This document shows, one piece after another, positions 3,832-59,970 of a stretch of 64,000 nt of DNA. The position numbers were made by a program, and so were the translations under genes. The DNA comes from Eledone cirrhosa (taxonomy: Eukaryota), in assembly GCA_964016885.1 (NCBI GenBank), contig OZ024741.1, positions 125,612,001-125,676,000 of the forward strand, read 5' to 3'. The notes beneath the pieces were generated by a model that saw only the letters and a program-made list of their open reading frames with translations, had not been told where the DNA came from and did no database searches. Position 1 is the first letter of the stretch. The number at the start of each line of letters is the position of its first letter.

Positions 3832-6608
3832 TCATCATCATCATCATCATCACCGTTTTACGTCCGTTCTTCCACGCTAGCATGGGTTACACGGGTTGTC
3901 CTGTTGTGGGCTGTGTCTGGTCGGCTGACCATGCCTTGCTCATACAGGAACTGATCTGGCTTGATTTCTACAGCTGGATGCCCTTCCTAACACCAACCTC
4001 ATTTACAGTGAGTGCTGGGTGCTTTTTCGTGGCGCCTACATGTCCACTTTACAGTGTGGGCTGGGTGCTTTTTTGCCGTGGCACCTCCACGACCACCTTG
4101 CGGTGGGGGGAGTGGGGGCATATTGTTTATATGCTTCAGCATGTACCCATGGGAGGTCGGGTACCCTGTATTACTGCGTGACGCCAGAAGTCACGGTCGT
4201 GTGTCATTGACTTTGAGAGGTGTAGTTGGGTAAGGTCGGCTTTTATCACCTCATCCCAAGTCATCTTGGGTCTCCCCACTCCGCGGTTTCCATCAACTTC
4301 TAGTGCTCTGCACCTTTTTATGCAGCTGTCATCCTTCATACGCATCACATGTCCATACCAGCGTAACCGCCTCTCCTGCACGCAGCATTTGATTCCTCTT
4401 ATGCTCAGTCTCTCTCTCAATTCCTTTATGCTTTGTCGTTCACGTATATTACTGTTACACATCCATCGGAGCATGCAGGCTTCGTTTCTCTCTAATCTAC
4501 GTAAGTCTTCCACCTTCAGCGCCCAGGTCTCACTACCATGCAACATCGCTGTTCGGATACACGCATCATACAGTCTGCCTTTCATTCTGAGGGAGAAGCC
4601 TTTTGCAGCTAGCAGTGGTAGTAGTTCCCTAAACTTCTTCCATCCCGTTCTTACCCTAGTTATTGTACTTTCTGAACACCCACCTCCGTTGCTAATTCGG
4701 TCACCTAGGTAGCAGAAGCTGTCTACTGTTTCTACAGGGCCCTCCCAGAGATTGGTGGTACTTGTTTCCTGTGGCTGTTTGCTTGCTGTTTCAGCACAGC
4801 TGCTGCATGTGAATCCTACATTCTTAATTAAGCTTCCTGAGATCCCGCTACATCTCTTGTGTACCCATTGTTTGCATTTGGGGCAGAGAATGGAGTTCCT
4901 ACCTACACCTTTCCTACATACTGAGCAAGGCCATTTCCCTGAGGGGATCTGGGTTCTGTTTTCTCGTCTACTTACAAGGACCTTAGTCTTTGTCATGTTG
5001 ACTTTGAGGCCCTTTCTCTCGAGTCCCTGCTTCCAGGTTTGGAATTTATTCTCTAGTTCTACCATAGATTCAGCTATGAGTGCGAGGTCATCAGCATACA
5101 GGAGTTCCCATGGGCATCCGGTCTTAAACTCCTCCGTTATTGCCTGCAGGACTATGATGAACAGGAGAGGGCTAAGAACAGAGCCCTGGTGGACCCCAAC
5201 CTGTACGCTAAATTCCTCGCTATACTCATTGCTAATCCTAACTTTGCTGACTGCTCCCCTATACATGGCTTGTACCGCTTTCACAAGCCATTCATCTACT
5301 CCTAGTTTTCTAAGAGCCCACCAGATTACTGCACGTGGAACTCTGTCAAAGGCTTTCTCAAGGTCGACAAATGCCAAGTAGAGTGGCTTACTTTTAGCTA
5401 GGTACTTTTCCTGTAATTGCCTCACAAGGAAGAGGGCATCAGTGGTGCCTTTCCCTGGTACAAACCCAAATTGCATCTCGTCTATATTCACCCGGTCCCT
5501 AATCAGCTGTGCTATAACTCTTTCTGTTACTTTCATGACCTGGTCCATCAACTTTATACCTCTATAGTTTCCTCTATCTAGTGCATCGCCTTTACCTTTG
5601 TAGCAGTTGACAATGATGCTACTGCACCAATCTTTTGGTATGGCCCCTTCTAGTATTACCTGGTTAACGATACGTGTGGTTATAGTGTGACCTACAGACC
5701 AAGATGCCTTCAGCATCTCGGCAGCTATACTCGATGGACCGGTTGCCTTCCCTATCTTCATATCTCTGATTGCCTTACTTACTACGCTGCCGCTGACTTG
5801 TACTGCTGGTCCCTCTATAGGGTCTACGTGGGGTAGGGTCTCTTCTTCCCATGCATTCTCCTCATTTAGTAATCTATCATAATGACTCTTCCATGCATCT
5901 TTCTTCTCAGCACTTGTGAGGGCAAGCTCACCTTTATCATTCCGGATACACTTCTCTCCAATGACATCACAACTATCTCTGACACACTGCCTCGCAATCT
6001 TGAATACCTCCTGTTTCTGGTCCTCACGTTGTAAAACATGCTTGAATTTTCTATCCTCTGCTTCCCTCCTAGCTAAGTATACTTGTCGCCTAGCTTCCCT
6101 CTTGGTCTCTATGTAATGTACCCTGCTCCCCCCGTTCTTCCATTCTTTCCATGCCTGTCTCTTGGCCTTGACTGCTTCATCTACCTTATTGTTCCACCAC
6201 CAAGTCACTCTCCTCCTGCTTGAGGTCTTACTCCAGCCACAAACCTCATCCGTCGCCTCTAGTAAGTTATTTTTTAGGAACTCCCAGTTCTCTTCTACGT
6301 TAAATGTCTCTATCTGTTCTTCTTTACTGTCGTAGGCGTTGAGTAAAATATCTTTAAATCTGTTACTGGTTGAGGGGACTTTCAGCTTCCAGATCTTTCT
6401 TCTCCAGGTTGGCCTCTGTTTCCGGGTTCGTCTAGTTCTGACCGTGAGGTCGCTGACAACTAAGCTATGTTGGGATGTACATTCCTCACTAGGGAAGGCT
6501 TTTGTGTTTACGACCGTCCATCTGTCACGTCCTCTGATGAGGATAAAATCTAACTGACTAGAGTGCTCCCCTGATCTATAGGTGATCAGGTGGTTGTCGG
6601 GTTTTTTA
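3829..6608 (-). mobile_element. RTE-clade LINE, 5'-truncated, with 3' UTR and (ATG)n tail
   Basis: Uninterrupted ORF covering the end of the APE endonuclease (SQLDFIL...QHSLV) and the RT. 3' end is gctagcgtggaagaacggacgtaaaacggt(gat)n next to (TA)n. Confidence 0.93.
4136..6608 (-). CDS. RTE ORF2 fragment: C-terminal APE + reverse transcriptase + PHD-like finger
   Basis: Motifs NYRGIKL, QFGF, AFVDLEKAFD, GVHQGSVLSPLLF, LLYADD, FCYLG, RLRWYGHV, GRPK. The ORF-track start at 6697 lies in a (TG)n microsatellite and is spurious. Confidence 0.9.
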
Positions 6609-6657
6609 TATATGTGCATCAATACACTCACACACACACACTCACACATACACACAG

Positions 6658-6694
<37 letters not shown>

Positions 6695-6699
6695 CATAC

Positions 6700-6870
6700 A
6701 TGGCTAACTGAATACAGACGTGTTTTTTGGGGGGTTTTTTCAAAATAATTTACCTCATTCCTTCCTCTTATCTCTATCTTTCTATTTCATCTTTTATTTC
6801 TCATTCTATCTTCTGATGAAAGACTAGTATCCGAAACATAAAGACTCTTTTCCCACCATATCAAGGCAAT
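6700..6870 (+). mobile_element. Short repeat with minimal hammerhead-like core (other copies ~3050-3240 minus and ~29200-29370 plus)
   Basis: All three share tttctatttcatcttttatttctcattcta.. followed by CTGATGAAGGACTAGTATCCGAAAC(G)T(T/A)AAGA (consensus read from the three copies). Confidence 0.7.
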
Positions 6871-7289
6871 GCCCCAGCATGACCAAAGTCTCATAATAGA
6901 AATTAGTAGAAAAATAAAAGAATATATAAATATAAACTAAAACTATTTCACTTGAAGTATAGAAAAAGAGAATTTAAATAGTTTACTTCATTAATGTGTG
7001 TGAGTGAAGGCCTACTGGTTTGGGTTTGGCTCACGGTTGTAAGGGCATGGCTTTGACACCTGGATCGAGTGAATTTTTTCCTTGAGCTAGACACTTTATT
7101 TGACTTTACTTTGACCAACACAGCTTGTAAAAAATAAGTTGTATATGTAATTCAAAGGGCCAGCCTTGTCACACACAGTGTCATGCTGCCACTGAATCTA
7201 AACTATAATAAAGGAAGGTCTGCGGGATTGCGTACATTTTTTTTTTTATCCCGTTAGAAAAATAAGTTGGATTACTTTAAATAAATAAT

Positions 7290-7465
7290 TGTTTCTACTT
7301 TTGGCACAAGGCCAGGAATTGTCTAGTGCATTACTGGTACTTTATTTTATCGACCCCGTAAGGATGAAAGGCAAAGTTAATCTCGGCGGGATTTGAACTC
7401 AGAATGGCAAGGGCCGTAACTATGCATCAAAGCATGACGTCCGACCCTCTACCGGTACTGCCAAT
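7290..7465 (-). mobile_element. tRNA-derived SINE, 'cccgccgaggttaactttgcctttcatcc' family
   Basis: B-box-like gagttcaaatccc on the minus strand. The same body recurs at ~11380-11570, 24740-25275 and 40641-40742. Confidence 0.75.
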
Positions 7466-7925: not shown

Positions 7926-8271
7926 TTATGTTAAGGGTACATGTGTCTATTGGTTGTATTAACTGGGACACTCATCAGACATTGACAGAAATTGAACACA
8001 AGTGAGAGCGAATCTATATATATATGCATCATGCAGAAATGAACATTAAATGTTGAAGAGATACATATATACATATATCATCATCGTCGTCATCATTGTT
8101 TTTACGTCTGTTTTTCGAAGCTTGCATGGGTTGGGTGGGTCCTTCTCAGCACGGCATCTCTCCACTTGTCGCGTTCCTTCATTGTCTCCTCTGCCAGTCT
8201 TAGCAATCTAGCTGTCGAAACAGCCGGAGCTCAGCCATCGGGGTCCTGAATCTTTTCATAAATATATATAT

Positions 8272-9000
8272 ATATGATGCGTGTATACAAACAGCAATGT
8301 TACGTGGTAGTGAAACCTGGGCGCTGTCTGTAGAAGACTTGTTTAGATTAGAAAGAAACGAAGCTTGCATGCTCCAATGAATGTGTAATAGTAATATACG
8401 CGAACGGCAAGGCATAAGCAAATTGAGAGAGAGACTGAGCATAACAGGAATCAAATGCTGTGTGCAGGAGAGGAGGTTATGTTGGTATGGACATGTGACG
8501 CGTATGAAGAATGACAGCTGCATAAAAAGGTGCAGAACACTAGAAGTCAATGGAAGCCGCGGAGTGGCGAGACCCAAGAAGACCTGGGATGAGGTGATAA
8601 AAGCCGACCTAACCCAATTGCACCTCTAGCGACCGTGACCTCTGGCATCACGCAGTAATACAGAAGACCCGACTTCCCCCAGGAACAAGCCAAAGCTGAA
8701 GCATATAGACAATATGACCCTACTCCCTCCCACTGCAAAGTGGTTGTGGAGGTGCCACGGCAAAAAAGCACCCAGACTACACTGTAAAGTGGACATGTAG
8801 GCGCCACGGAAAAAAAGCACCCAGCACTCACTGTAAATGAGGTTGGTGTTAGGAAGGGCATCTAGCTGAAGAAATCAAGCCAGAATCAGTTTCTGTATGA
8901 GCAAGACAAGGTCAGCCGACTGGACACTGCCCACAACAGAACAACCCGTCTAACCCATGCTAGCGTGGAAGAACTGACGTAAAACGGTGATGATGATGAT
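8272..9000 (+). mobile_element. 5'-truncated copy of the RTE family at 3829-6608
   Basis: Near-identical C-terminal peptide (CNSNIRERQ...IKCCVQERRL.WYGHV...WDEVIKADLTQLHL) plus the same 3' UTR and (GAT)n tail. Further fragments at 1-75, ~37850-38220 and ~42660-43020. Confidence 0.88.
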
Positions 9001-11343: not shown

Positions 11344-11577
11344 TGCACATACACACTCACACACATATATATATATATATAATTGTTTCTACTTTTAGCA
11401 CAAGGCCAGCAATTATTTCAGTGTATTACTGGTACTTTATTTTATCGACCCCGTAAGGATGAAAGGCAAAGTTAACCTAGACAGGATTTGAACTCAGACC
11501 GTAAAGGGACGTAACTATGCTAGAAAGCATGGTGTCCAACCCTCTACCGATACTGCCAATTCACTGCCATTTGACCA

Positions 11578-13111: not shown

Positions 13112-13148
13112 TTAATCTGTTATATTAATAAATATATATATATATATA

Positions 13149-13340
13149 GGAACGAGTAGGACCCCGACGGCTAATTCTGGACTAAAAATTTAAACATTTT
13201 TAGTCCAGAATTAGCCGTCAAAACGCCTTGAGCTCAGCCATCGGAGTCCTACTCGTTCCTATTACCCACTCTACTACCCTAAGTATTGAGTACTTTGGTG
13301 CGTTATGGTCCATCTGGTTCCTTACCACATTTCCTTCGTT
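13149..13340 (+). mobile_element. (TA)n-embedded hairpin repeat family (copies 8206-8258, 34984-35180, 39433-39540, 61800-61986)
   Basis: Shared sequence agctgtcGAAAC(a/g)gccggagctcagccGTCggggtcctgactcttttcctattacccactctactaccctaagtattgagtactctggtgcgttatggtccacctggtatcttaccacaccttctttgtt, usually preceded by an inverted copy of its own start. Confidence 0.75.
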
Positions 13341-13567
13341 ATATATATATATATATATATATATATTTCGCTCCTAATAACAGTCTTTCCTATCTCTGTT
13401 TGGTTGAGCACACTTCTCTGAGTGGCTTTGGGCTGCCCTTTCTAGCAGTTCGTCTCTCAGAGGCCACTGGTTCACTGCCCTTAAACACACTGTGACTTCT
13501 CTCTCCCACGTGTAGCTGGACAGGCAATTGATAAATTCTCTTAGTGTTGTCTGAAATGTATGGCCTT

Positions 13568-13648
13568 ACACACGCTGATGAACCGAGACTAAACCATTTC
13601 TTTCAACAAATTTTTTGGTGAAACATATCTTTGGATTTGTACGTGTGT
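13568..13648 (+). ncRNA. Type I hammerhead ribozyme, complete core
   Basis: Stem I ACACACG(13568-74)/CGTGTGT(13642-48); CTGATGA 13575-81; stem II ACCGAGA/TTTTGGT; GAAA 13620-23; stem III ACATATC/GATTTGT (one mismatch); GTA cleavage triplet 13639-41. Confidence 0.8.
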
Positions 13649-15398
13649 TATATAGTTATAAAGGTATTTATTTACGCTTTAATTTATATTTTTAATTATC
13701 GTGTCTATAGTCTGCCTTTCATAGGTTATAGATTCCATACACTGGTGGTTTTTTTCCCTGTATTATTGATAACGCACTATATATCTCTCTCTGGTGTGTT
13801 ACCTTCTCAACATATTATATTTTAAAGGGCTCAGGATCTCTTCCCCTTTGAGCACATTATTTACAGGGAATAACGACGGCCTATGCCTCCGTTAATTTAT
13901 CGTGATATATATATATATATATACAAAGTTGGGTTGTAGATTAATAGGTATATAGATGAATAAATGACAGCACACATTCTCAAATACATACACACATGCA
14001 AACATACATATGCATACATACACATATATATTATATATTTATTGTAGGATGTAGATTTAAAGGTATGTAAATGACAACACACATTTATACAAATGTAAAT
14101 GATGATGATGATGATGATTTACAAGCACTAATTCATCATCATCGTCATTATCTCGCTCATTCTGATCACTCGACAAGATCCCAGACTTCATTTACTTGCC
14201 GAGTGGGGTGGACCCCGTCAAATTAGACAAAGGAAACAATGTTTCCATTGATCTTTCCATTGCTGATACTATCTACCGGTCACAATTCCTGGCAGAACGA
14301 GCGACATGAAATAAAGTGACTTGCTCAAGGACTCAACACATCAGCCTGTCCAAGAATTGAACTCACAATTGTGAGGTTGCGAGTTCAACTCTCTAACTAC
14401 TAAGCCACATGCTATTTGAATGTTTTCTCTGTTAGTAAGGGTTGTTATGCATTTTTACAGACCAATTCAGTATTTACTCAGAGTTATTGATCTCTAATTT
14501 ACATATGTTCCTGCGCTCTACTGAGAGTGACAAGGGCATGTTATCCCGAAACCAACACTAATAAGGTCATTATATCCTTGACACAGCTGAAGAGTCCTCC
14601 CAACTCTTTGTTTGGCAGGTTTTTTTATGGCTGAATGCCTTTCCAACCACATAACAGAGTGTTTTATCTTGTCCACACCAACATTAGAGAGTTAGCTGTG
14701 CCCTTGACACAATTAAAGAGTTTCTTTACCCTTTGTTTGGAACGTTTTTTTATGGCTGGTTTAGACTAATTATTGCTTCTAATTCAAGCAAAGGGCCAGC
14801 AATTATAGGAAAGGTGGGGGAATAGTTGATTATATTTATTTCAGTAATTAACAGCTACTTTATTTTATCAACCCAACACCGCCAGAAAGATGAAAAACAA
14901 AGTTAACCTCAATTGGACTTGAACTCCAAATAAATGGCTAACTAAATATACTCTTGGGCCCAAATAATGGCGAGGGGGGGGGGGGTGGAAGGGGGGGGAA
15001 TCGGTAATTTTTCTAGGTTGTCTCCATTGATATTTTAAAAACCAGAATTAGTCATTCAGTTTATATATTGAAACCCCAACCAATCCTATTTACTTTATAA
15101 CATATGGGATTTCTAGTAATGTACTGTTTTGTCATGTATAATACTTTTTAATGTATAAAGAAAATTGTTGCAGGAATGCTACCACTTAAAATAAAATTTT
15201 GCTGAAGATAGATTAACAAAATTTAATAAGCAGGGGGTTCGGAATAAGAGCAGGGGTTGAGTTGGAAAAATTTGAATACCCCCTTATTAATTTTTCAAAT
15301 TAATAAGGGGGCATTCAAATACACACAGCACATATACAAACACACACACACACACACACACAGATTCACAGATATAAACACACAGCACATAGACACAC

Positions 15399-24739: not shown

Positions 24740-25285
24740 AGAAGGGCAGTGGATTGGCAGTATCAGTAGAGGATCGGAAAACATGCTTTGTGACATAGTT
24801 ATGTCCCTTTATGTTCTGAGTTCAAATCCCGCCAAGGTTAACTTTGCCTTTCATCCGTACGGGGTCGATAAAATAAAGTACCAGTAATGTACTGGAATAA
24901 TTGATGGCCTTGTGCCTAACGTAGAAACAATTATTATTATTATTATTGGGAGGTGTAGGGCGGTATTGGCAGTATCGAGTTCAAATCCCGCCGAGGTTAA
25001 CTTTGCCTTTCATCCTTACGGGATTGATAAAATAAAGTACCAGTAATGTACTGGTTAATTGCTGGCCTTGTGCCAAAAGTAGAAACAATTATTATTATTG
25101 GGAGGTGTAGGGTGGTGGATTGGCAGTGTCAAGTTCAAATCCCGCCGAGGTTAACTTTGCCTTTCATCCTTACGGGGTCGATAAAATAAAGTACCAGTCA
25201 TGCACTGGGGTCGATTTAATCGACTTTCCCCGCCGCCAAAATTGCTGGCCTTGTGCCTATCTAAGAAACAATTATTATTGGGAGG
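24740..25285 (+). repeat. Head-to-tail array of three SINE units
   Basis: gagttcaaatcccgccgaggttaactttgcctttcatcc...agaaacaattattattgggaggtgt occurs three times. Confidence 0.8.
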
Positions 25286-25766: not shown

Positions 25767-26745
25767 AAGGAGTGAATGCTTAGTCGTTAGCATGTTCAGT
25801 TCCCAAAGATGAAGTCATGAGTTTGATTACCAAACCAGGTGGTATATTGTGTCCTTGAGCAAAACATTTTATTTCCAGCCTCTCAGCTGGAAAAAATGAG
25901 TACCAAGGGCAGCAAACTGGCATCCCAAGCAGGTTGAAGTCTCATACTCCCTGTCTATGTTACATGAAACTAACAGACTCCAGGAGTGAAGTCTTGTACT
26001 CCCACCCACTTAATGCCATATGGAACTAACAGACACTCGAAGGAAAAAGATTTGTACTCTCAGTTACTTAATGCCACATGAAACTAACCAACTCCAGAGG
26101 TGAGAAGACTTTTACTCTCAATCACTTGATGCTACATAGAACTAACAGACACCAGGAGGAAGTTTTGTACTCTCTGTCAATGACACATGAAATTAATAGA
26201 CCCCAGAGAAGGAAAAAGATTTGTAGTCCCAGTCACTTAATGTCACATAAAACTAACAGACCCCAGAGAAGAAGTCTTGTACTCCCAGTCACTTAATGCC
26301 ACATAAAACTAACAGACCCCAGAGAAGAAGTCTTGTACTCCCAGTCACTTAATGCCACATAAAATTAACAGACCCGAGAGAAGTCTTGTACTCCCAGTCA
26401 CTTAATGCCACATGAAACAGACCCCAGAGAAGTCTTGTACTCCCAGTCACTTAATGCCACATAAAACTAACAGACCCCAGAGAAGAAGTCTTGTACTCCC
26501 AGTCACTTAATGCCACATAAAACTAACAGACCCCAGAGAAGAAGTCTTGTACTCCCAGTCACTTAATGCCACATGAAACTAACAGACCCCAGAGAAGAAG
26601 TCTTGTACTCCCAGTCACTTAATGCCACATGAAACTAACAGACCCCAGAGAAGAAGCCTTGTACTCCCAGTCACTTAATGCCACATGAAACTGGGATGAA
26701 CTCCAGCCTGATGAGCCTCAAGATTTGATACAGACTTTAATCTTT
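25767..26745 (+). mobile_element. tRNA/CORE-like SINE with Nin-like 3' domain, internally expanded into a minisatellite
   Basis: A/B-box-like head; gtgtccttgagcaaaaca CORE-like block; 3' end gaaactgggatgaactccagcctgatgagcc. Unexpanded relatives at ~50200-50370 minus and ~28150-28370 plus. Confidence 0.6.
25971..26691 (+). repeat. ~56-bp minisatellite, 13 units
   Basis: Unit aacagaccccagagaagaagtcttgtactcccagtcacttaatgccacat(a/g)aaact; for example, units start at 26311 and 26367. Confidence 0.92.
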
Positions 26746-29465: not shown

Positions 29466-32400
29466 TCCATGTCCTGGGTATGACATTAAACTACATCCAG
29501 TGGCAAGGCTCCAGTTCAGGAGTTCAGGAGATGTAGGGTATGTGGAGTTACCCCTTAGTTGTCATGACTCCCAGGTCTGCCCTGGCCCGGGGTGGTAGTA
29601 CCTGTTAGGGCTCCATTTATGGGTTAAATAACTACCTTATTCGAGTGGCGCCGGTAAGGTATTGTCAGCCATTGAAAAGAAATATGGAGAGTCGATCTAA
29701 CAGCACTAGGGTTAGAGCCCCTAATTACACTGTCAAGGAGCAGCCTGGTCGTTATGACTGCTGGCTTAGAGCCACAGAGAGGGCCAGTGGATGATGGATC
29801 AGCTGTCTCTGAGACAAATATAAAGAATGCAGTTTTGTCCTGCAGAAGAGCCATCAAAATGGGCACTTTGAATGTGAGGACTATTCGGATGCTGGAGAAG
29901 CGAGAGGAGTTGGGACATCTGTTCGAGGAGAGTGGTATACAGATACTTGCGATCCAAGAACACAGGATCCTACACGATGAGCCCGTGAGGAGTGTGATGA
30001 TCGGGAGGAAGAGCCAGCTCATCACTACATCGGCAGTGAAGAACACAACAAATGCTGCAGTAGGAGGAGTGGGTTTTGTGTTCAGTGCAAAAACCAATCT
30101 GTTGGTGAGGGAAATAATGCCTATCTCCCCGCGAGTGTTGAGGGTGACCTTCAATGGAAACCCAAGACTGACAGTCATCTCAGCCTATAGTCCAACCGAG
30201 AGGGACAGTGATGTGAATGCGGAAGAGTTCCATGAGGAGGTGTGTAGAGCTGTCAACACCACTCAGGCACACAATATCTTGCTTGTTTTGGGGGACTTCA
30301 ATGCACATCTGAGTAAGGAGGGCAGTGAAGATCCTTGCTGGTACTTCCATAACAACACCAACCGAAATGGAAGACTACTGAGAGACACCCTGCTGGAGGC
30401 GAACTTGATGGCGACCAACCTAAGGTTTAGGAAGAATCTGGGGAAGATGTGGACCTACATCTCAGATATGCACCTGTCCAAGTCCCAGATTGATTTCATT
30501 CTGGTGAGGAAAAAGTGGCGGAATAGTGTTCTGAACACGGAACCATACAGCTATTTCAGTACACTGGGTAGTGACCACCAGCTTGTTATGAGTGAGGTCC
30601 GTGTGAGCTTAAGAAAGAGCAAGGTTCAGCCCCGGAGAACAATCTATGACTGGGGAGCTTTCAAGGAAGATGATAAGCTACAGGAGAGGTTCACAGTGGA
30701 AGTGGGAAACAGGTTTAGTGCTCTGTGTGGAGAGTCAGAGGAGAGAGAGATTGGATGGACTGAGGAGAGTGTGACGAGGAGGTACGGGCACTTCACCAAT
30801 GCAGTGGCGGAAGCAAGTGAAACCCTGGTGCCGAGGAAAAAGAACAAAGGGAAGCACGTCAGCTCTGCAAACCCAAAAGTGTGTGCAGCCAGAGAACACC
30901 TGAAAGCTGCCAGGGACCAATTCTATGCTGATCCTACGGAGGAGAGGATGGAGACTGTGGAGGTGATGAGGGAAGAGCTCTGTACCGCTTACACTGAGGT
31001 CAGAGAGGAGGCACTGAAAGAGAATATCAGAAGTGTGGAGAGAGTGGTTGACAGATCTGGATGTAAGGAGAGCTGGATGATCATCAACGAGATCACAGGG
31101 AGGAAGAGAAGGTGTTCGAGTCAGATCCAGGGAACGGGGCCCGAGGATAGGAAGAGGAAATGGCTAGACCATTTTAGGACCCTACTAGGAGAGCCACCCT
31201 CCACAGCCCAGAGCACTGGGGAGATCAGGCAGCTGTCTGAGGAACTGGATGTTGAGACAGAGCCCTTCACCAGAGAGGAGCTTCAGAGAGCCAAGAAGAA
31301 GATCAAGGAGGGCAAGGCTCATGGAGAAGATGGAGTGGCATCAGAGGTGATGAAGAGGTGTGATTTTGATGATATCATCCTGGGGTTCTGTAACGGGGCA
31401 CTGGAGAAAGGAATTGCCCCGAATCAGTGGAGGATCAGTAACATCGTCCCAGTGCCAAAGAAGGGAGATCTCTCTAACACCAACAACTACTGAGGGATCT
31501 CACTGACGTCACTTGTGGCAAAGACCCTCAACAGGATGATTCTTAACAGGATCCAGCCTGAGATGGAGAAGCTTAGGGACAACCAGAACGGCTTCAGAGA
31601 GGGTAGATCAACCACCAGTCACATCCTGATGCTGAGGAGGATATTAGAGGGAGCTAGAGCAAAGTGCCTTCCTGCGGTCATGGTTTTCATTGACTTTAGG
31701 AAGGCCTTTGATTCTGTGGACCGTTACTGCCTGATGAAGATCTTACAGGCTTATGGAATCCCCAAGAAGATAGTGGACCTGATATCACTGCTCTACACCA
31801 ACACCAAAGCCCAATTCATTACACCTGATGGGATGACAGAGTTCTTTGAGATACTGGCTGGAGTGCTCCAGGGAGATACATTGGCTCCCTACCTTTTTAT
31901 CATCGTAGTGGACTATTGTATGCGCCTTGCACTGGAGAAACACGAGGACTCTGGCTTTACTGTAGCACCGGCTCAGAGCAGGAGAGTTAGGGCGAAAAAG
32001 GTATCGGATGCTGAATTTGCCGATGACATAGTATTGGTGACAAATACAATGAAGGAGGCAGAGGATTTATGCGGGAGGTTGAGACTGTGTCGATGAGTGT
32101 GGGGCTGAGAATGAATGAGACTAAAACAAAATATCTGGTAGAGAATGTTGAGAAGCCAGAGGGTATCACTAATGTAGGCGGGAAGCCGCTGGAATTGGTT
32201 GAGGACTTCCTGTATTTGGGAGCAAAGATTGGGAATACGGAAGATGATGTGGTTGAGAGGAAGAGCAAGGCCTGGGCGGCGTGCCACAGCTTGAGATCGG
32301 TGTGGAAGTCGGACCTTCATAGAGACCTGAAAATCCGCCTCTTCATTGCTGTAGTGGAGTCTGTGCTGCTGTATGGGTCTGAGACTTGGACACTGACCAA

Positions 32401-32775
32401 GAAACTCACTCAGATGGTGGATGGGTGCTACACGAGAATGCTGAGGATGGCTCTGAACATTAATCAGTATACACTGAGGATGAAAAACTCAGAGCTGTAT
32501 GGGGGCATCCCAAGAGTCAGCTCAAAAGTGACACAGAGGAGACTGAGGTTGGCTGGACATGCTCACCGACATCCAGAGTTGACATTGCACTCAGTGCTCC
32601 TTTGGGAGCCCCTACATGGATACACTAGAAGAGGTTAACATATGTTGATGCCCTAAGGACAGACACTGGTTTGTTGGAGATGCAGGATATGGCAGTGATA
32701 ATGAGGGACAGAGACCGCTGGAGAGAACTCGTCCATGGATCTCGGGAATTTTACCCGCCTTAGATAGATAGATAT
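29466..32775 (+). mobile_element. Near full-length RTE-clade LINE (putative 5' region, APE, RT, (TAGA)n tail)
   Basis: A single long ORF from 29754 with a complete APE domain and RT, ending cccgccttagatagatagata. The 5' boundary is uncertain. Confidence 0.88.
29754..32763 (+). pseudogene. RTE ORF2 (APE endonuclease + reverse transcriptase), inactivated
   Basis: APE motifs GTLNVRT, IQEHR, LGDFNA, QIDFIL, SDH; RT motifs QNGFR, FIDFRKAFD, GVLQGDTLAPYLF, EFADD, FLYLG. Lesions: TGA at 31491 in NY*GISL (likely CGA>TGA), a frameshift near 32069, and a small deletion near 32635. Confidence 0.92.
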
Positions 32776-34632
32776 TTATCCATATTAATCAGCAGTGCTA
32801 TCCCAAGCCAGTAACAAAATGTTATATATAAAACAACAATAATAATAATAATAATAATAATAATAGAGATAGTGATGATTATGGTGGCAATGATGATGAT
32901 GATAATATTAATGAGCACTTGAACTGCATTTTTTAAGAATGTAGGTTAAGAAAGTCATTAAAAATGTTTATATCACTGGAATTCCTCTTAAAAGATACTT
33001 GAGATATTTTAATGATCAATTATATAAAGGTGAACTTTATGGCAGTATATTGTCATCAATGGAATTATAACAATCAGTGAGGTGTATAGAGAAAAACGCA
33101 CTCTTCATGCAGCACTAAATCTTTTTTTCTTTCATATTTTTCTAAAGTACATGGCTTATATGAACTGAACAGCAAGTGTAAGTCCATTTTCCATGCTAAA
33201 CTTGGGCCCGACGATAAGTTTCATACTTATCATGGGGTCCTTTTTGAAACAATATTTTACAGCTGTATGCAACAACTTCCTGGAAACAACACTTTTAGTC
33301 ATCTCTTACGATACACACAGATGCAGTGTTCCTATTCTAGACTGGATATAAAATTCACAGCTCACTTCTCTATGTAGGTTTAGCTCACCAACTATGTTGT
33401 TTCATCTCACAGGAGGTTTCTCGGGTGTTTTAAAGATAGAGGCCTCTATCCTGTCTCAAAAACAAACATGAAATGAGGTGTCTTTCTCAATATAACAGAG
33501 CATGCTGCCTGGTCCAGAAATCAAAACCAAGACCTTATGATCATGAGTTAATCACAACAAAAAATGCCGAGTCAATGCTGTAATGTAGTCATTTTGGTTC
33601 CACAATAAAAAAACACCCAGTCCACACTGTAAATGCTTCTTTTGTTGCCATGATAAAAAGCACCCAATCCCCACTGTAAAGTGGTCAGATTGATGTCACG
33701 ATAAAAAGCACCTAGTCCACACTGTAAATGTGGTTGGCATTAGGAAAGGCATCCAGCCACAGAAACCAAGCCAGAAATAGTTCTGTATGAGCAAGACAGT
33801 CATCTGACCTGACTTGTCTAACATGGACATTAAACAACGATGATGATATATCTATACCAATGAGTGTATACATATACAACTCTTTGTTTGGAATGTTTTC
33901 TATGGCTAAATGCCCTTTCTAACACCAACCAATCTAATCCATTGCAGGGATTAGCCTGTAAATTTGTTAGTTAACCCTTTCATTTCCATATTTCTAATGA
34001 CAAATGCTGTTTTTCAATTGATTAATGAAGAAATTTGAAAGATTTACTAAAATTATTAATTATTTCATTACTAAGATAGTGACCTAACTACGGTTCTTAT
34101 ATAAAATTACATTGGAAGATTTTAATCAAAATAGACAAGTATTAAAACAGTTGGCTTTGTTTCATAGAACCAGAGCCAGTTACAAACCAAGTTGGTATAA
34201 AAAGGGTTAATATATTATTTTGACATCATAAAATACAACACATTCATTCTCACTCATCGATTCACTTGCATTTTCAACACAACAAATAACAAAAGAAGAC
34301 ATTTATTTGGCACAACTAGCAAATACTTGTTCTGAAAAATATATGTTCATGATTTGCAAAGTATGGAAGGATATCAGTGACATAATCAAGATAGTAAATA
34401 GTTTTATTATGATAATGTAAAGATAAAACAAAAATCAAACTAAACCAAAATATACATCTGTCCTTTAAATATGTTTCATTATTGAAATGTAATTGAGATT
34501 GTAAATACTTTCATTATATCAATGTGAAGATGAAATTACAAAAAAATATATATCCGGTCTTTAAATACTTCAATTACTGGAAAGTGAAGATTAAATTTGA
34601 GAATAATCAATAAGGGTATTACAAATGAAGAA

Positions 34633-34896: not shown

Positions 34897-34980
<84 letters not shown>

Positions 34981-35127
34981 TATAACAAAGAAGGTGTGGT
35001 AAGATACCAGGTGGACCATAACACACCAGAGTACTTGATACTTAGGGTAGTAGAGTGGGTAATAGGAAAAGAGTCAGGATCTTGACAGCTAAATCTAGCT
35101 CAGCCGTCGGGGTCCTGACTCTTTTCC

Positions 35128-35158
<31 letters not shown>

Positions 35159-35642
35159 CGGGGTCCTGACTCTTTTCCTATATACATATATATAATACTA
35201 TACGAACATGCTAGACAACAACATGACGGTAACATAGACAACATAGAAATTAGAATAATATCTAAACATAGAAATGACCCAGCAGATAGGCAAATCAGAG
35301 AGGCCAGTGAAATAGAAATTAGAAGGCCAAGACTAAACAGAAAGAATTGAATGGAATAACAACAACACCCAAACAAACAACACTGACCTAAGAGAAGTAT
35401 AAATAAGTAAATAAAATAAAATAAATAAATAAATAAATAAATACATACACAAACACAATAACAACAAGCACATAAACACACACTAGTCACCCATCACACA
35501 GCAAACAAAACACTACACACACGCAAACGCATGCGCAAAGAAGACAAAATAAAATAAACAAACAAGCAAATAAATAAATAAATATATAGACAGACTGAAT
35601 AAAAATGGCGTAGACATATAATACAACAGGAGGAAACGATAA

Positions 35643-39262: not shown

Positions 39263-40269
39263 TACACACATACACACATATATGTGTGTATATATATATG
39301 TGAGTGTGTGTGTGTATATATATATCATTTTTGATGATTTAGGTTTAAAGAATAAAAACTAATGATAAAATAAAAATATATTTTTAAAAATGAGGGCCCC
39401 GAGTGTGTGTGGCCCTAATATATATATATATATGAAAAGAGTCAGGACCCCGACGGCTGAGCTCCAGCTGTTTCGACAGCTAGATCCGAGTACTCTGGTG
39501 CATTATGGTCCACCTGGTATCTTACCACACCTTCTTTGTTATATAGATATATATTATATAGATATTAATTAATCTTTATTATTAACATTAATATGAAAAA
39601 TGATAAATATATTTTTTTACAGAAGTGCCTCAAATTTCATAAAGCTTAGAGCCTCAGCAGGTGAATATCTGGCCCTGGATGCCTTTGTAGTGGCAAGCAG
39701 ACACCACCCCCTTGGCCCTCTTAATCTCAACCCAGCAGAACATGAAAAACTTTACTGAGGATTAAATAGAATAGGTCAAATTAGGAAAGTATTATATAGA
39801 CAATCTGTCTGTATAAGAGCTTGTTCGGCTGAGTTAATTAGCAGTGTCAGTTATATGTTGTTTGGCAAGATGCCTGATTTATACTTTGTCACATATTCAC
39901 GTATAGTATATTGTTATTCACAATGTATCCACTAGCAGAAGTATATATATATAAATATATATATATATGTGTGTGTAACTCAGCCCACACTGTAAAGTGT
40001 TTGTTTTGATGCCTCAATAAAAAGTACCCAATGCACACTATAAATGTGGTTGACATTAGGAAAGGTATCCAGCTGTAGAAACCAAGTTAAAATCAGTGCT
40101 GTCTAAACAAGACACTGTCATCTGATCTGGCTTGTCTCACAATGGGACAACTCATCTAACCCACGCTGGATCGAAAAATGGACGTTAAATAGCGATGATG
40201 ATGATATAATATATATGCTTTTACATACATTTTTCGTTGCTTGCATATATATTGCGAATCCTTTTTTTG

Positions 40270-41615
40270 AGGGGATGATCAACAAGAGCTAAGTGTCTGG
40301 CAAAGAGATGCAGGGAGATTGTCAAGTCAAAGCTAGCTGATGGACAGTGTGGTTTTCGCCCGGGATACAGCACAGCCAGCCAAAAATTCACACTGCAGCA
40401 AGTCTTTGAGAAATCGTGGGAGTACTGCCAAGAGGTGTATTCTTGCTTTGTAGACCTCAAAATGCCATTTGACTGTGTTCTACAGGACCTGCAACGAAAG
40501 GTTCTGGGGGAGTATGGGATCGATCAACAGCTTCTTATTGCCCTGATGTCTCTATATGAATTCCTGGGTGTTCGGATAAAAGGAGTCGGACTCGGTCGAG
40601 GGTGCATATTGTCATCTCTCCTGTTCATTATTTTCATGAATCCCGCCGAGGTTGACTTTGCCTTTCATCCTTACGGGGTCGATAAAATAAAGTACCAGCA
40701 ATGCACTGGGTAATTGCTGGCCTTGTGCCTAAAGTAGAAACAATTATTTTCATGAACAGGATTGACATGTGTAACTGGGTTGGAAGTAGTATCACGTCTA
40801 GCAGGTGTCAAATCAGTTGGCTGGCATTTGCAAATGGCATGGTATTAGTTAACTGACACAAAGTGATCTCCAACATGTACTTGATAGGTTTGATGCTGAG
40901 TGTAGCATGGTTGGAATGAAAATCAGTGGTGCGAAACCCGAGACATGCGTCCTCTCAAACAAGACTGTGCAGTGTATTCTACATGTGAATGGAGTTCCAC
41001 TGAAGCAGAAGTTCAAGCATCGAGAGGCAATCCTCACAAGTGATGGAAGGCAGGAGGTTGAAGTAAGTGCAAGAATTGCAGGAACTGCTGCATTAATGTG
41101 CCAACTTCAGCATTTGGTAATCAGAAAAAGAGAGGTAGGTGTGAAAGCCAAACTCGTTATCTTCAATTCAGTATTTGTGCCAAACCTTACCTATGGTCAT
41201 GAATATTGGGTAATGACCAAAAGAATATGATTGCAAATACAAGCGACCGAAATGGGGTTCCTCTGAGGGTCTTTGGAGTAACATTTCTTGACAGAGTGCA
41301 TAGCTTGGAGATCAGAAAGTCACTTCAGGTAGAGCCGCTACTTCTCCAAATCAAGAGATCACAGCTCCAATACTATGGGCATGTGGTTAAAATGTCATAG
41401 GAAAGAATCGCTAAACAGACAAAACCAACTGGAAAAAGACCCAGGGGTAGACCCTGAGCAAGATAGTTGGATAACATCCATGACCTCAGCTGGCCATGCT
41501 TGGGGATCCAGCCAGATCAGTTGGAGACTGTTGCTTCTGACAAGACTCACTGGAAGGGATAGTTGAGGACTCTGCCCTCACGACCCTCCCAGGATTAAGT
41601 CGATGAAGAAGAATA
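40270..41615 (+). pseudogene. Old RTE LINE RT remnant interrupted by a SINE
   Basis: QCGFRPG, YSCFVDLK, LSSLLFIIFM, LTYGHEYW, YYGHVV motifs with many lesions. A SINE at 40641-40742 is flanked by a 14-bp TSD attattttcatgaa. Confidence 0.85.
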
Positions 41616-53367: not shown

Positions 53368-56131
53368 TTAAACGAATATTGTTTTTGAGAGTTTCCGTGG
53401 CCATATTACTGTCCTGCCACTTCGTGTGAAATATGGTTGTGTGGTATGTGGTGTTTGCGGTGGAGGTGAAGGTGTTTGTGTGGGAGTGTATATGCGAGGT
53501 ATGTCAGGCAATGATGTGAAACTTTCAGAGAAAGCCTTCTTTGCTCTGCCAACGGATATTACCTCTTTTCGACCATTGACAGCCACTGTAAAATGTTTTG
53601 GAGTGTGCGAAAGCACACGAAAAGGTCCATTGTAAGGTGACGTAAGAGGTCCCTTGACGGAATCATTCCGTATGAAAATGTGTGTCCACGTAGAGATGTC
53701 CGATGGGACAGCAGAAGAAATAGATTGGTCATGAGGGTTCATTGGTGGAAGATCCGAGAAATACGAACGAATCCTGGTGACATATGATGCTGGGTCAAGA
53801 TGTGATGAATCCACTGGTGCTAACATTTGTCCAGGAAGAGACAATGTGGTACCATAAAGAAGTTCAGCCGAAGAAAAACCTAAATCTGTCTTAATGGCAG
53901 AACGACAACTAAGAAGCACAATTGGCAAAAATTCGGTTCAACGTTGAATCTTAGAGCGCTGACACTTCAAGCAAGAACGTGCCCAACCAGTGATTAAACG
54001 ATGCATATTATGCCAGAAGAATCGAGCCGTAATAAGCTTCACCGTGGCAGCTATGCCAGGATGTGACAAGGAATGAAGTGCATCAAAAACGGTACGCTGA
54101 TGACAATCCGGAACAAGTGGTCTGGGTGAGCCAGTAGAAACATCGCAGAGAATTTTTCCTTCAGAAGATGGAAGAGGTAAATATTCCAGTTTGCTGCAGG
54201 AGAACTGGTCAGAGGAAATGTCCAGTGAATCCAAAGTAGGTTGTTCAGTTGCAATGGCAACTAAATCGATATGTGCAGGAGACGCAAGAGAACACACAGA
54301 AAGTCGAGATAATGCGTCCGCGGGTATGTTGGCAGCTCCAGCTATATGACGAATGTCACTGGTGTACTGGGAGATGAAATCCAAATGTCTGTATACCCTT
54401 GGAGAGTATCTGTCGGACTTGGTTTGAAGAGCGAATGTGAGTGGTTTATGGTCTGTGAATACCGTGAACTCCCGACCTTCAAGAAGATGGTGGAAGTGTC
54501 TCACAGCAAGATAAACTGCTAAAAGCTCTCTGTCAAAAGTACTGTAACGTTGCTCTGCTGGTTTTAGTTGGCGTGAGAAAAACGCCAGTGGTTGAACTTG
54601 GTGATCGATTACATGATGCAAAACTGCGCCAACAGCACAATCAGATGCATCAACAGATAAGGAAAGTCTCGCATTTGCAACAGGATGGGCAAGGAAAGAA
54701 ACTTTAGCTAGCTCAGACTTGACAGATTTAAAGGACTGCAATGCATCGGCAAAAAGTGAAATAGGAGCATCTTTCTTTTTCGTAGCCTTTAAAAACTGTG
54801 TCAAGGGGAACAACTTGTCCGCACAGTTAGGAATGAAGCGACGATAAAAGCTAATTAATCCCAAGAAATGACGTAATTGTTTCAGGGAGGTGGGTGGTAC
54901 GATATGCTGAATCGCTTCTACCTTAGATGGCAAAGGTCGTACGCCTTCTGAATCTATAAGATGTCCAAAGAATTCCAGTGAATCTTCACCAAACACACAT
55001 TTAGCTGGGTTGATTCTGACTTTGTACGATTGGAGACGTTGAAATAACTGAGATAGCTGTTGATGATGGTGTTCATTCGAATCACTGGCTATTAGGAGAT
55101 CATCAACGTAAGCAATCCACGCGTGACTTCATCGATAAAACGCTGGAACGTACTAGAAGCATTCCGCAAACCAAAAGGCATGGACAGGAATTCAAATGAA
55201 CCAAAGGGGGTGGTCACAGCGGTTTTTGATATATCCTCTGGATTCATGGGTATCTGGTGGTATGCACGTATTAGAACTATTTTGGAAAATATCTTGCATC
55301 CATGCAGAACGGATGAAAAATCCTGTAAATTTGGTAGAGGATAACGGTCTGGCGTGGTGATGGCATTAAGTCGTCGATAATTTCCCACAGGCCTAAAATC
55401 CGCTTCAACCTTACGAGCCAAGTGAAGCGGAGATGCCCATGGGCTGGTGGACGGTAATATAAAACCGAGCTGGATCATATGCTCGAACTCGTTTCGTGCT
55501 TTTTTTAGTCTATCCGGAGCCAACCTTCGTGGACGAGAGAAAACAGGTGGACCAGTTGTTGTAACGAAGTGTTGAGTCGAGTGGGCTGCCTGAGTAAGTT
55601 TAAATGAAATATCCGTTAACTCGGGAAACAAAGTAAGGAGTGCATGAAACTGGTTTCCAGCGGCAGCCACAAAAAATGACGGACTGACAGCAGTAGTGGT
55701 AGATTTACGAGTAGGCGTAGATAAGGATGTGTACTATCCACAAGTTTCTGGTTCCTGACATCTACCAAAAGTGAAAAATGCTGTAAGAAATCCGCACCGA
55801 GAATAGGATGAGGAAGGTCGGCAATGACAAAAATCCATTTGAAATCTCGACTTAAAGCTAGGTCCAATGTTAAAGATATTTGTCCATAAGTTTTTATAGG
55901 AGACTGGTTTACTGCATACAAAGAAATGCCGGAAAGAGTTGGCTTGGTAGAGTTGAACCGTAAGGACCAAATACTGCAACTTGATCCTGTGTCGACCATG
56001 AATGATTTGTTTGAAACTCGGTCTCTAATGAAAAAAGCACGATAAGGTGAATTAATGAGGGAAAGATCTGCCATGCCCAGACTCTCCAATTTTAGTTTTC
56101 CGAGGTCTTGAAAGAGCAGGGCTGAATACAA
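53368..56131 (-). pseudogene. pol: Gypsy pol: protease, RT, RNase H, partial integrase
   Basis: VDTGSS protease; SPWASP, YRRLN, MPFGLRNA RT; DAS..VGAVL, TDHKPL, ADALSR RNase H; H-H-C-C zinc finger; YNGPF C-terminal motif. Frameshifted. Confidence 0.92.
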
Positions 56132-56777
56132 TGTTTCGCCTTTTCACGAAAACGCATGTAATACCAACACAAAGACGAGTTGTTGGCGGAGAGGTTGGCG
56201 CTACAGTGAAAGGAAGAAGACCAACTTTGTGAACGCCGTCTAGATGGCGTTCGATCCCTACATAGTTTAGCTACTTGCCTAGTTAACGCGTCAATGGCTC
56301 TCAACATTGAGTCCTCACAAGATGAAGCAGGCTGGGTTTTGAAAGCAGAAGAGGCAATGACCGAATCAGCCAAGGTAGGTTCTCTAGAAAATTCTGGTGT
56401 CAACTGTATTTGCTAATATGGTTTTTACAAAGGAACTGTCTTTGGGTGCATCATCACTGAGTTCACGGATACGCCGTAAAAACTCTGTAGGAGTTCTGTC
56501 CCCCAGATTTTCATCCTCTAATAAGGAACGAAATTTACTCTCAGGTGACCTACAGTTCTTACGCAGTACCTGTCTTCAGAGACTCGTAGGAAACGCCTTG
56601 GGGAGGGTTCTTGATTATGTCTTTTACTGTAATCGCTAGTGAAGCTGGAATTCCGCTGATTAGCATGTTTAATTTTTGCTGCTTTTCCTGTACTCCGTTG
56701 ACCGCAAAATACTCATCAAGCTGGGCGAACCACAATTTGGCATCGCCAGAATACGCTGGTAACGATGTGTTGCTCAT
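56092..56777 (-). pseudogene. gag: Gypsy gag remnant
   Basis: LPAYSGDAKLWFAQLDEYF N-terminus, LGDRTPTEFLRRIREL, and a C-terminal CWYYMRF..KAKHC..PC knuckle-like motif. Frameshifted. Confidence 0.75.
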
Positions 56778-57360: not shown

Positions 57361-57596
57361 TCATTGTTTTTACATCCACTTTCCATGCTGGCAGTGTTGG
57401 GGTATAAAAATAGAGCTAGTGATGAATGTTGTGATATGCAGTGGTGTAAAATGATTGGGTCAAATGTTGAGGAAGGATGAAAGTGACTGGGTGGGAGGAG
57501 TGATGGGAATAGACCCAGTGATGGATGTTCTGAAGAGAAACGGAATATGATGGCTAAGACATTTTTTGAGGAAGGATTAACATGATTGAGTGTGGC

Positions 57597-59970
57597 TGAG
57601 ACAGAGTGAATGTACCCCACAGCATAGGTTAGTTGTTAGTGATATCTCAGTAAGCAAGAGATGGAATGAGACATATAGGAAGGTGTGGAGAAGAAAGGTC
57701 TGGAAGCTAAAAGACCTTTCACTAAAATACAAATTTAGGAAAGCCCTTCAAGATGTATATGACGAAAAAGAAGACGATTTAGAGACGTATGACATAGATA
57801 ATAACTGGAATTTCTTACATGACAACTTGCTGCAGGCTACTGATGAAACTTATGGCTGGAGCAGAGCTCCAACCAGACAGAGAGTGACCTGGTGGTGGAA
57901 CAGCACAGTAGATAAGGCTATTAGAGACAAAAGACTAGCATGGAAGGCTTGGAAAAAGGGTGGGAGTAGGGAAGAATATACAGCCACTAAGAGAGAAGCT
58001 AGACGTCAGGTGTACTTAGCACGCAGGGAGGCAGAGAGTAGGAGGTTTGCCAATGTTCTGCGACGGGAAGATCAGAGGCATGCGGTGTTCCACATTGCAA
58101 GGCAGTGTGTCAATGCAAATCAGGATATTGTTGGAGATAAATGCGTCCGGGATGATGCCGGTGTACTTTGTGTCATGAATGATCAGAAAAAGGAGGCCTG
58201 GAAATGTAATTATGAGAGACTGATGAATGTGGAGAACAAATGGGAGAGAGAGAAATTACTCTTGGTAGATCCGACAGAGGGACCAGCTATTGAGATTGAC
58301 GAATATAGGGTCCAAGAGGCAATTAGGGAAATGAAAAATGGTAAGGCTGCCGGACCATCGGGAATAGTTGCTGAGATGCTGAAAGCATCAGGGGACGTAG
58401 GCACTAAACTGGTTGCACGCATCATCAATCAGGCTATATTTGGTGGTGTCATACCCAAAGACTGGTGCAGCAGTATTCTCATAAATTGCTACAAAGGTAA
58501 AGGGGGTGCTTTGGAGAGATGCAATTATAGGGGTATAAAACTGATAGATCAGGTTATGAAAGTGGCAGAAATGATTTTAGCACAACTAATTAGAGATGCA
58601 GTTTGGTTTTGTGCCTGGGAAGAGTACAACAGATGCCCTCTTCTTGGTGAGACAATTGCAAGAGAGGTTCTTAGAGAAGAATAAGCCACTATACTTAGCC
58701 TTTGTTGACCTAGAGAAGGCCTTTGATAGGGTACCCCGATCTGTCATCTGGTGGTCCCTAAGGAAGCTGGGTGTTGAGGAATGGCTTGTGAGGACAGTGC
58801 AAACTTTGTACAGAGGTACTCTCAGTAAAGTCAGGGTAGGAATGGAGTTTAGTGAGGAATTCCAGATACAAGTAGGAGTACATCAGGGTTCGGTCCTCAG
58901 CCCGCTCTTGTTCATTATAGTCCTCCAAGCCATAACAGAGGAGTTTAAGACTGGCTGTCCATGGGAACTTCTCTATGCTGACGATCTGGTTCTTATAGCA
59001 GAATCAGTAGAGGAGCTAGAGAATAAATTCTGGCTATGGAAACAGCAGTTGGAAGCAAGAGGACTGAGAGTGAATCTAGCTAAGACAAAAGTGTTGATGA
59101 GTAGAAAAGAGGACAAAACCCTGATTCCGTCAGGGAAATGGCCATGTTCGATATGCAGAAAAGGAACTGGCATAAATTCTATAAAATGCACACAATGCAG
59201 ATCCTGGGTACACAAGAGATGTAGCGGGATAGCAGGCAAACTAACAGGTAGGGAGAAATATGTATGCAGTAGATGTACAGGGAAATTAGACAGTAGAAGT
59301 CGCATTGATAGACATATTTTTCAAATGCAGGAGGGCGTTATAGAAGTGGTGGATAACTTCCGGTACCTAGGAGATCAGATTAGCATGGGAGGAGGGTGTT
59401 CCGAGGCCATAGTATCTAGAATAAGGACGGGTTGGAAGAAGTTTAGGGAGCTGCTTCCTCTGTTGACGAAGAAGGGTTTCTCCCAGCGTACGAAAGGCCG
59501 GTTGTATGATGCCTGTGTGAGGAGCGCGATACTGCATGGTAGTGAGACATGGGCAGCAACTGCAGAGGATATGCGACGGCTGGAGAGAAATGAGGCAAGC
59601 ATGCTCTGTTGGATGTGCAATGTAAATGTGCGTGAACGACCCAGCATAAATGTGTTGAGAGAGAAACTGTGTCTGAGAGGGATAGAATGTAGTGTACGGG
59701 AGAGGAGACTGAGGTGGTATGGACATGTGATGCGCATGGAGGATGACCGATGGGTGAAGAAGTGCCAGGAATTGCCAGTTGAAGGAAGACGTGGTAGAGG
59801 TACACCACGAAAAACATGGGCGGAGATGGTGAGAACAGACCTCAGATCATTGAAGCTCACGGTGGAGATGATGAGGGACCGTGACGAGTGGAGAGATGCT
59901 GTGCTGAATAAGACCCATCCCACCCTTGCAAGCAGGGAAAAGCGGGCGTAAAATGATGATGATGATGATG
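57597..59970 (+). mobile_element. RTE-clade LINE, 5'-truncated, RT + PHD-like finger, (ATG)n tail
   Basis: Homologous to the 4136-6608 protein (VDLEKAFD, GVHQGSVLSPLLF, LLYADD). One frameshifting deletion near 58595. The stop codon abuts the tail. Confidence 0.93.

Follow-up and report, generated by a model that had tools for sequence, protein, structure and literature searches.

A many-copy, protein-less repeat with a type I hammerhead motif in Eledone cirrhosa: a likely non-autonomous derivative of Penelope-like elements

Background

Animal non-LTR retrozymes, as far as the accessible parts of two sources describe them (Cervera and de la Pena 2020, PMC7229834; Li, Clavereau and Pollet 2026, 10.64898/2026.07.22.740005), are ORF-less repeats of under 50% GC that carry a type I hammerhead with a short helix III, occur as head-to-tail units and as monomers, and are predicted to form self-paired circles. 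The first-described circles measure 170-400 nt, and a Xenopus preprint gives a range of 51-972 bp (10.64898/2026.07.22.740005). The same preprint derives non-LTR retrozymes from the pseudo-LTRs (pLTRs) of Penelope-like elements (PLEs), with a phylogenetic link in Xenopus only; PLE hammerheads and the idea of a circular template are already found in PMC4209133. According to a 2020 review (PMC7761336), the retrozymes of metazoans carry no motif by which their partner could be told.

PLEs themselves are described in PMC8557442, whose accessible parts supply the following. TA targeting is a PLE trait, and these elements are further marked by partial tandems, by inverted copies truncated at the 5' end and by one-sided tails. 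In the Hydra clade, 26 of the 27 listed families prefer TA for insertion, and canonical hammerheads are tabulated; Naiads are given there without canonical hammerheads. The MRC1-like non-autonomous elements of the Chlamys clade are ORF-less PLE derivatives with pLTRs and with head-to-tail insertions of several copies, and the clade favours microsatellites, but these are elements of green algae, and a canonical hammerhead is absent in most Chlamys elements. Mechanistic detail comes from Poseidon of Anolis (PAc; Frangieh et al. 2024, PMC11167929): the purified PLE nicks AT-rich DNA and takes a stem-loop within its RNA as the starting point of reverse transcription, with no need for ribozyme cleavage. 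Among cephalopods, the PLEs of O. vulgaris are abundant and recently active (190 families, 6.83%; PMC13282606), and ribozymes go unmentioned in the accessible part of that paper.

Here we describe a locus of Eledone cirrhosa that resembles all of these systems in part. Like the animal retrozymes, its repeat unit is ORF-less with a type I hammerhead, it has under 50% GC, exists head-to-tail as well as in monomers and has a self-paired predicted circle, and its 542 bp lie within the Xenopus range, although it is longer than the first-described circles. Unlike them, it has a long stem III with a 24-nt loop 2, sits in TA tracts with no readable target duplication, and has terminal hairpins in common with PLEs. 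With Hydra-clade PLEs it shares the TA target, a canonical type I hammerhead (the pair at the base of stem II being variable in that clade) and hairpins near the ends, but those elements carry an RT/GIY-YIG ORF and the unit has none; moreover, from the hammerhead to the 3' end there are 256 nt in the unit and about 30-110 in the Hydra clade. With the Chlamys elements it shares the lack of an ORF, the head-to-tail arrangement and the microsatellite target. With PAc it shares genomic ends that lie away from the ribozyme cut, set in PAc by internal starts at a stem-loop, and a ribozyme not competent alone, which is demonstrated for PAc and predicted for the unit; PAc differs in being autonomous, in its minimal hammerhead overlapping the ORF start, and in a target that is AT-rich rather than a TA repeat.

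Results

The hammerhead motif

The window, that is, the whole stretch of DNA that was analysed, comprises 64,000 nucleotides of contig OZ024741.1 (assembly GCA_964016885.1, positions 125,612,001 to 125,676,000, forward strand); coordinates below count from its first letter (Table 1).

Table 1. Features of the repeat unit and its borders (positions in the window).
Feature	Position	Strand	Basis or remark
Whole unit, 542 bp, ORF-less, 39% GC	13367..13908	+	joints in runs X1 and X6, ORFs, GC
Left TA tract, common to the unit and the adjacent fold-back repeat	13340..13366	.	tract search
Right TA tract	13905..13923	.	tract search
Hairpin B, GCTC-32-GAGCAC, 3 nt after 5' end	13370..13411	+	motif scan, fold
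Distal stem I, 5' strand (predicted; pairs with 13661-13673)	13554..13567	+	fold prediction
Type I hammerhead motif (stems I-III and core)	13568..13648	+	sequence and own descriptor
Core CUGAUGA	13575..13581	+	descriptor; no variant place among those listed
Stem II (7 pairs) and loop 2	13582..13619	+	the ribozyme's variable part
GAAA, long stem III and GUA triplet	13620..13641	+	predicted cut after 13641
Stem I bulge, 12 nt; a candidate for loop 1, which may contact loop 2	13649..13660	+	fold and inference
Distal stem I, 3' strand (predicted)	13661..13673	+	fold prediction
Hairpin A, GCTC-17-GAGCAC, with 49 nt from it to the 3' end; site of clustered inverted joints	13829..13855	+	motif scan, joints

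An original prediction, made from the letters of this stretch, had placed an essentially intact type I hammerhead ribozyme here. As a statement about sequence this stands: the core CUGANGA, GAAA (13620-23), an NUH triplet (GUA, 13639-41), three helices and an open stem I are all present. As read from the sequence, stem I (13568-74/13642-48) has 7 Watson-Crick pairs, stem II (13582-88/13613-19) 7 pairs including two G-U, and stem III (13623-29/13634-40) 6 of 7 pairs with a U-U mismatch at 13626/13637, the pair counts that had been proposed. From the known hammerhead consensus, cleavage is predicted after 13641. One class mark differs, since the base of stem II is an A-U pair where G-C is usual. 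The G10.1-C11.1 pair is highly conserved in type I hammerheads (PMC4209133), but PMC8557442 tabulates Hydra-clade motifs with U-U and other pairs, and an axolotl motif likewise has another pair there (PMC7229834). G-C at this place is common but not obligatory.

In fold predictions, stem I can be extended by 12 pairs (13554-67/13661-73) past the 12-nt bulge. Type I hammerheads carry loop 1 where this bulge sits. The mean pair probability of distal stem I is 0.53 within 13550-13680 at 37 C and 0.0 within the whole unit; at 13661, the majority variant retains a G-U pair of this stem. By eye we also spotted a candidate loop 1-loop 2 pairing of 5 bp (13587-91 with 13653-57).

Could the motif be a chance match to the hammerhead consensus? 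The Rfam check suggested with the original prediction went against it, for the hammerhead models give no match at gathering score in the 64-kb window and none at E<=10 within 13300-13950; nor is the local folding stability of the ribozyme region above that of shuffles (z about 0). However, when both strands of 300 locally shuffled 64-kb windows were searched with our own descriptor, there were 0 matches with at least 6 pairs in stem I and at least 5 in stem II, 1 at the thresholds of 5 and 4, and 8 at those of 4 and 3. In the real window the same descriptor finds the motif at 13568-13648 and one weak match at 15202, with short stems (4/3/2), which is probably chance. The 0 of 300 is a bound per window, by itself insufficient against chance across a genome, but the family data set out below exclude chance: the motif sits in a tandem-forming, retroelement-like unit, a known home of such motifs, and a contig of a second subtype still aligns over 13548-13648 despite an altered loop 2 and stem II. 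In our opinion a chance origin is very improbable indeed.

The repeat unit, its copies and its ends

The original prediction had also seen an ORF-less island of about 540 bp (13366-13905), bounded by (TA)n. It is indeed ORF-less and TA-flanked, while its limits are now 13367-13904 plus ATAT. They follow from copies that we sought in public sequencing runs; 13 of the 17 listed runs contain part of the stretch, and 4 were analysed. In run X1, 1846 contigs fall on 13367-13904 (538 bases) and cover all 30 bins, with 516 of them at 99% identity or more, 570 at 95-99%, 480 at 90-95% and 280 below 90%. Their summed depth is 4e3 to 1.9e5, against 5-15 for long single contigs, which should be read as "very many" and not as a copy number; a rise in depth 3' of the ribozyme was given no weight. 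A head-to-tail joint from 13904 to 13367 via ATAT is found in 3 X1 contigs and in 1 X6 contig (103 letters before it, 127 after), and a joint from 13901 to 13367 in 2 contigs; X1 has 11 distinct head-to-tail junction rows. The joints via ATAT make the unit 542 bp long and show that it exists head-to-tail, the final ATAT being indistinguishable from the TA target. There are also six opposite-strand (inverted) joints, of one contig each. No listed contig spans the whole unit or two hammerheads.

Runs X6, X7 and X8 yielded 4, 1 and 1 contigs at depth 3-13; the loose ends in X8 resemble a sequencing adapter. These contigs may be trace DNA, and they lend no support to a spread across species. No second copy of the unit was found within the 64-kb window, and the family pattern had 0 matches in metagenome, prokaryote and viral contigs, as expected for an animal repeat.

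The ends that the family defines coincide exactly with the edges of the two TA tracts (13340-13366 and 13905-13923). Given 40 TA tracts of at least 8 units in 64 kb, the probability of chance abutment is about 0.003 per end. With TA on both flanks, a target duplication is not readable. The longest stop-to-stop frame within the unit is of 70 aa, and there is no RT or GIY-YIG ORF such as marks an autonomous PLE; an ATG at 13883, with a frame across the joint of about 25 codons (followed by hand), we dismissed as noise.

Thus the unit is non-coding, a few hundred bp long, of under 50% GC and arranged head-to-tail, as retrozymes are, and it has the tandem joints and the six single-contig opposite-strand joints that mark PLE-mobilised repeats. 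It behaves like a non-LTR retrozyme and bears the testable marks of one; it is not an autonomous PLE. The proposal of a microsatellite-targeted retroelement has fared well, given a many-copy family with head-to-tail and inverted joints whose two ends both lie on TA tracts, and the data support sharpening it to an ORF-less, PLE-dependent unit. Our main reading, to which we give a probability of roughly 0.78, is that 13367-13908 is the full monomer of a many-copy, protein-less repeat with a type I hammerhead, existing also head-to-tail, and likely a non-autonomous PLE derivative of the non-LTR retrozyme type that would be copied by a TA-targeting PLE enzyme. We count against it that no autonomous parent of the unit was found.

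An improbable alternative is that the unit is a solo pLTR or an autonomous PLE's 5'-truncated end, in which case the tandem joints would be occasional pLTR multimers. A hammerhead is a usual feature of pLTRs, in most cases a single motif deriving from a truncated PLE (PMC4209133), and retrozymes grade into pLTRs (10.64898/2026.07.22.740005); further, 83 X1 contigs overrun the ends of the mapped stretch, and 9 of 136 loose ends were listed. But random truncation would not place the 5' end of the window copy at the tandem joint, the unit closes on itself with no ORF, and no common continuation is apparent among those 9 listed loose ends.

Neighbouring repeats

The window is rich in repeats. A second TA-embedded repeat lies at 13132-13365, with copies at 61775-62002, 34958-35170, 39418-39565 and 8206-8284. 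This family has inverted arms from a fixed point and a one-sided tail of about 80-90 bp. In two copies a hairpin of the form ACTC...GAGTAC, related to the GCTC...GAGCAC hairpins of the unit (see below), stands 47 nt ahead of the TA tract; once past its inverted part, the copy near 39490 restarts at the same arm of its hairpin as X6 contig 11 does in hairpin A. A hammerhead was not found in this family. Its sequence suggests the inverted 3' terminus of a further PLE-moved family with the same target.

LINE ORFs with RT domains lie at 4136-6703 (minus strand, an open frame of 855 aa), 57590-59951 (plus) and 29676-32638 (plus). In two of the three the RT is followed by a PHD-like finger, and the DNA of these two is about 69% alike; the LINEs of the window are of animal type, the best match being 54% identical. 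A broken LTR-retrotransposon pol (RT, RNase H, integrase zinc finger) occupies several frames of 53368-56143 (minus). A SINE-like repeat, which we take to resemble an octopus SINE, lies at 24819-25208 (2.5 tandem copies of 154 bp), 7278-7465, 11372-11571 and 40639-40749, and a minisatellite of 13 copies of 56 bp at 25962-26692.

Variation and predicted folding of the ribozyme

Among the 32 listed of 36 X1 variant places, 0 fall in the 51 positions of the core, stem I, stem III and proximal stem II, and 5 lie in the 30-nt part that distal stem II and loop 2 make up. This avoidance of the core has p=0.024 if none of the 4 unlisted places is in it and 0.12 if one is, which makes conservation of the core positions suggestive. 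The window copy has the minority letter at 11 of the 32 listed places (about 2% of the unit). One-sided changes keep 3 distinct pairs and disrupt others in the same register; an X1 variant at 13615, for instance, disrupts a pair of stem II, and in the X6 subtype 13619 is C while no change is listed for its partner. Compensatory pair changes were not seen among the variants from X1 and X6 contigs.

A second ribozyme subtype, seen in X6 contig 10 and in two X1 loose ends, differs in stem II, loop 2 and the bulge and has a longer loop 3, while the start of distal stem I is retained (compared over 13548-13680). An X6 loose end at 13648 has another bulge, yet the first 7 letters of 13661-13673 recur.

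It is for folding that the term "essentially intact" went too far, as the hammerhead is not the predicted minimum-energy fold of the window copy. In predictions that include no tertiary contacts, the catalytic fold has a probability of about 0.001 (about 0.1%) at 37 C, and lower at 20 C, and lies 2.6 kcal/mol above an alternative that pairs loop 2 with stem III. The X6 subtype disrupts 6 pairs of this alternative. We weigh the fraction of about 0.1% and the missing compensatory changes against activity. Experience elsewhere, within the accessible parts of the sources, is mixed: coral and mussel retrozyme motifs cut as monomers (PMC7229834), 8 of 9 tested Xenopus dimers gave no product (10.64898/2026.07.22.740005), and the Anolis PLE hammerhead cuts only with protein present (PMC11167929). 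That many predicted elements, such as the Xenopus dimers, cut poorly in tests also counts against our main reading. We would still expect the family ribozyme to cleave under some condition, whereas efficient unaided cleavage by the window copy seems doubtful.

Given this, is the hammerhead a decayed passenger in a satellite-like repeat, or in one mobilised otherwise (by LINEs, a Helitron or DNA recombination)? The disfavoured ribozyme fold, the lack of visible covariation and the many LINEs with RT domains in the window would all agree with it. On the contrary, the sequence of the unit contains no terminal inverted repeat, nor a poly(A) or tandem tail belonging to it, its inverted joints and TA-bounded ends fit PLEs, and the avoidance of the core by variants is suggestive. 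We regard this explanation as even less probable than a solo pLTR.

Paired hairpins and the partner enzyme

The unit has two hairpins of the form GCTC...GAGCAC, with 17 letters between the arms in hairpin A and 32 in hairpin B. The GCTC/GAGC arms of hairpin A pair in fold predictions, and across the tandem joint hairpin B begins 56 nt after hairpin A. The order around the joint is hammerhead, TA-rich stretch, hairpin A, 56 nt, hairpin B, with the genomic end between A and B. On both strands of the window, GCTC-N12-35-GAGCAC occurs twice, both times in the unit, where 0.97 are expected per window; two in a shuffled unit have P 5e-5, for a motif that was chosen after being seen. The inverted joints cluster at hairpin A: in 5 of the 6, the larger coordinate falls in 13826-13851 (P 0.001-0.008 if breakpoints were uniform), and X6 contig 11 picks up the plus strand again at 13851, within hairpin A's 3' arm.

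We read six Hydra-clade consensi (PMC8557442, File S7) by eye for this hairpin. The exact motif lies at most 100 nt from an end in 3 of the 6: in Hydra-2_Amil and Hydra-2_Ajap it follows the hammerhead and a TA-rich stretch and stands 25-26 nt short of the end, and Hydra-1_Ajap has it twice at the start, 36 nt apart. Hydra-1_Crog has near-matches at both ends, and the motif was not seen by eye in Hydra-1_Amil or Hydra-1_Obim, the latter having a hammerhead unlike ours. The order around our joint is the order of Hydra-clade PLEs minus the ORF, and two of the consensi show it as hammerhead, TA-rich stretch and hairpin. However, a GCTC...GAGCAC hairpin also stands at the start of Naiad_Ptep (30 of the 70 GAGCAC places were inspected), so the motif is not specific to the Hydra clade; the comparison covers Hydra and Naiad ends. 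What the unit shares with the Hydra and Naiad consensi of other species is the 10-letter hairpin motif only. Six look-ups of short motifs of the unit in the PMC8557442 supplement gave no sequence match. An 8-letter match of the unit start to Hydra-1_Obim was rejected, having 7 occurrences in the 584 kb of supplement text, and no weight was given to 9 letters that match where Naiad_Ovul starts.

Since Naiads are described without canonical hammerheads and nearly all listed Hydra families prefer TA, the Hydra clade is the best, though uncertain, candidate for the partner. To judge from these sequence likenesses, a Hydra-clade PLE as the partner has a little less than an even chance. A bolder joint reading, which we offer tentatively and with the odds against it, is that the paired hairpins would be a cis-signal by which TA-targeting PLE enzymes (of the Hydra clade and some Naiads) recognise the RNA and start reverse transcription between the hairpins. 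The unit would then correspond to a Hydra-type PLE circle that has lost the ORF from between hairpin B and the hammerhead, and the same signal would serve the fold-back repeat next to it.

Discussion

How might such a unit move? The genomic ends of the window copy lie 267 and 275 nt from the predicted cut, hence a linear RNA running from cut to cut was not its template. That leaves two templates, a circle or a multi-unit RNA that stays uncut and is started internally, and by analogy with PAc the offset of the ends fits an internal start of reverse transcription by a PLE enzyme.

In our main reading, tandem copies would be read through into a multi-unit RNA. A PLE RT/GIY-YIG protein supplied in trans would bind the region from hairpin A to hairpin B and nick a TA microsatellite, and reverse transcription would begin inside the RNA at the AUAU between the hairpins, away from the ribozyme cut. 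A single round would give a TA-bounded monomer such as 13367-13908 and more than one round tandems, while stalling or re-priming near hairpin A would give inverted copies. The hammerhead, probably helped by protein, would trim the multi-unit RNA to 542-nt pieces, which may be ligated to circles, and insertion need not require cutting.

A variant that is compatible with this reading is a strict retrozyme cycle, in which two hammerheads would cut a tandem transcript and a ligase of the host would close the 542-nt piece to a circle; with this circle as template, insertions would be circular permutations that open at AUAU. A circle can template the genomic copy as a linear cut-to-cut monomer cannot, and retrozymes of coral, mussel and axolotl accumulate as circles (PMC7229834, accessible part). 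Folded as a circle, the unit reaches z=-3.7 on the ribozyme strand (0 of 60 shuffles as stable) and -1.5 on the other strand. But 1 of 22 other window segments folds equally well, and the same ends are explained by uncut multi-unit RNA with internal initiation (PMC11167929). A background segment at 33501-34042, which overlaps a dispersed repeat, has a circular-fold z of -4.1. We consider the strict cycle possible and rather less than evenly likely; that RNA circles of the unit accumulate at all is slightly easier to believe, yet still short of even odds.

Implications

The kind of element is already known, and the family is an addition to the non-LTR retrozymes and non-autonomous PLEs. The literature that we searched describes neither this family nor the hairpin, nor any cephalopod retrozyme; the family may already be catalogued in Repbase, in Dfam or in subscription journals, which lay outside that search. 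Its hammerhead, which has a long loop and a long stem III and is overlooked by Rfam, belongs to a many-copy family.

The question to which the family speaks is which autonomous element moves animal retrozymes, and via what signal. It offers a short candidate signal that it shares with TA-targeting PLEs, a fixed insertion point off the ribozyme cut and many natural copies, and with these three a circular versus an uncut RNA template, as well as protein-assisted cleavage, become testable on one element. If the reading of the hairpins as a signal is true, it would tie an animal retrozyme to a specific partner and to a defined site of initiation.
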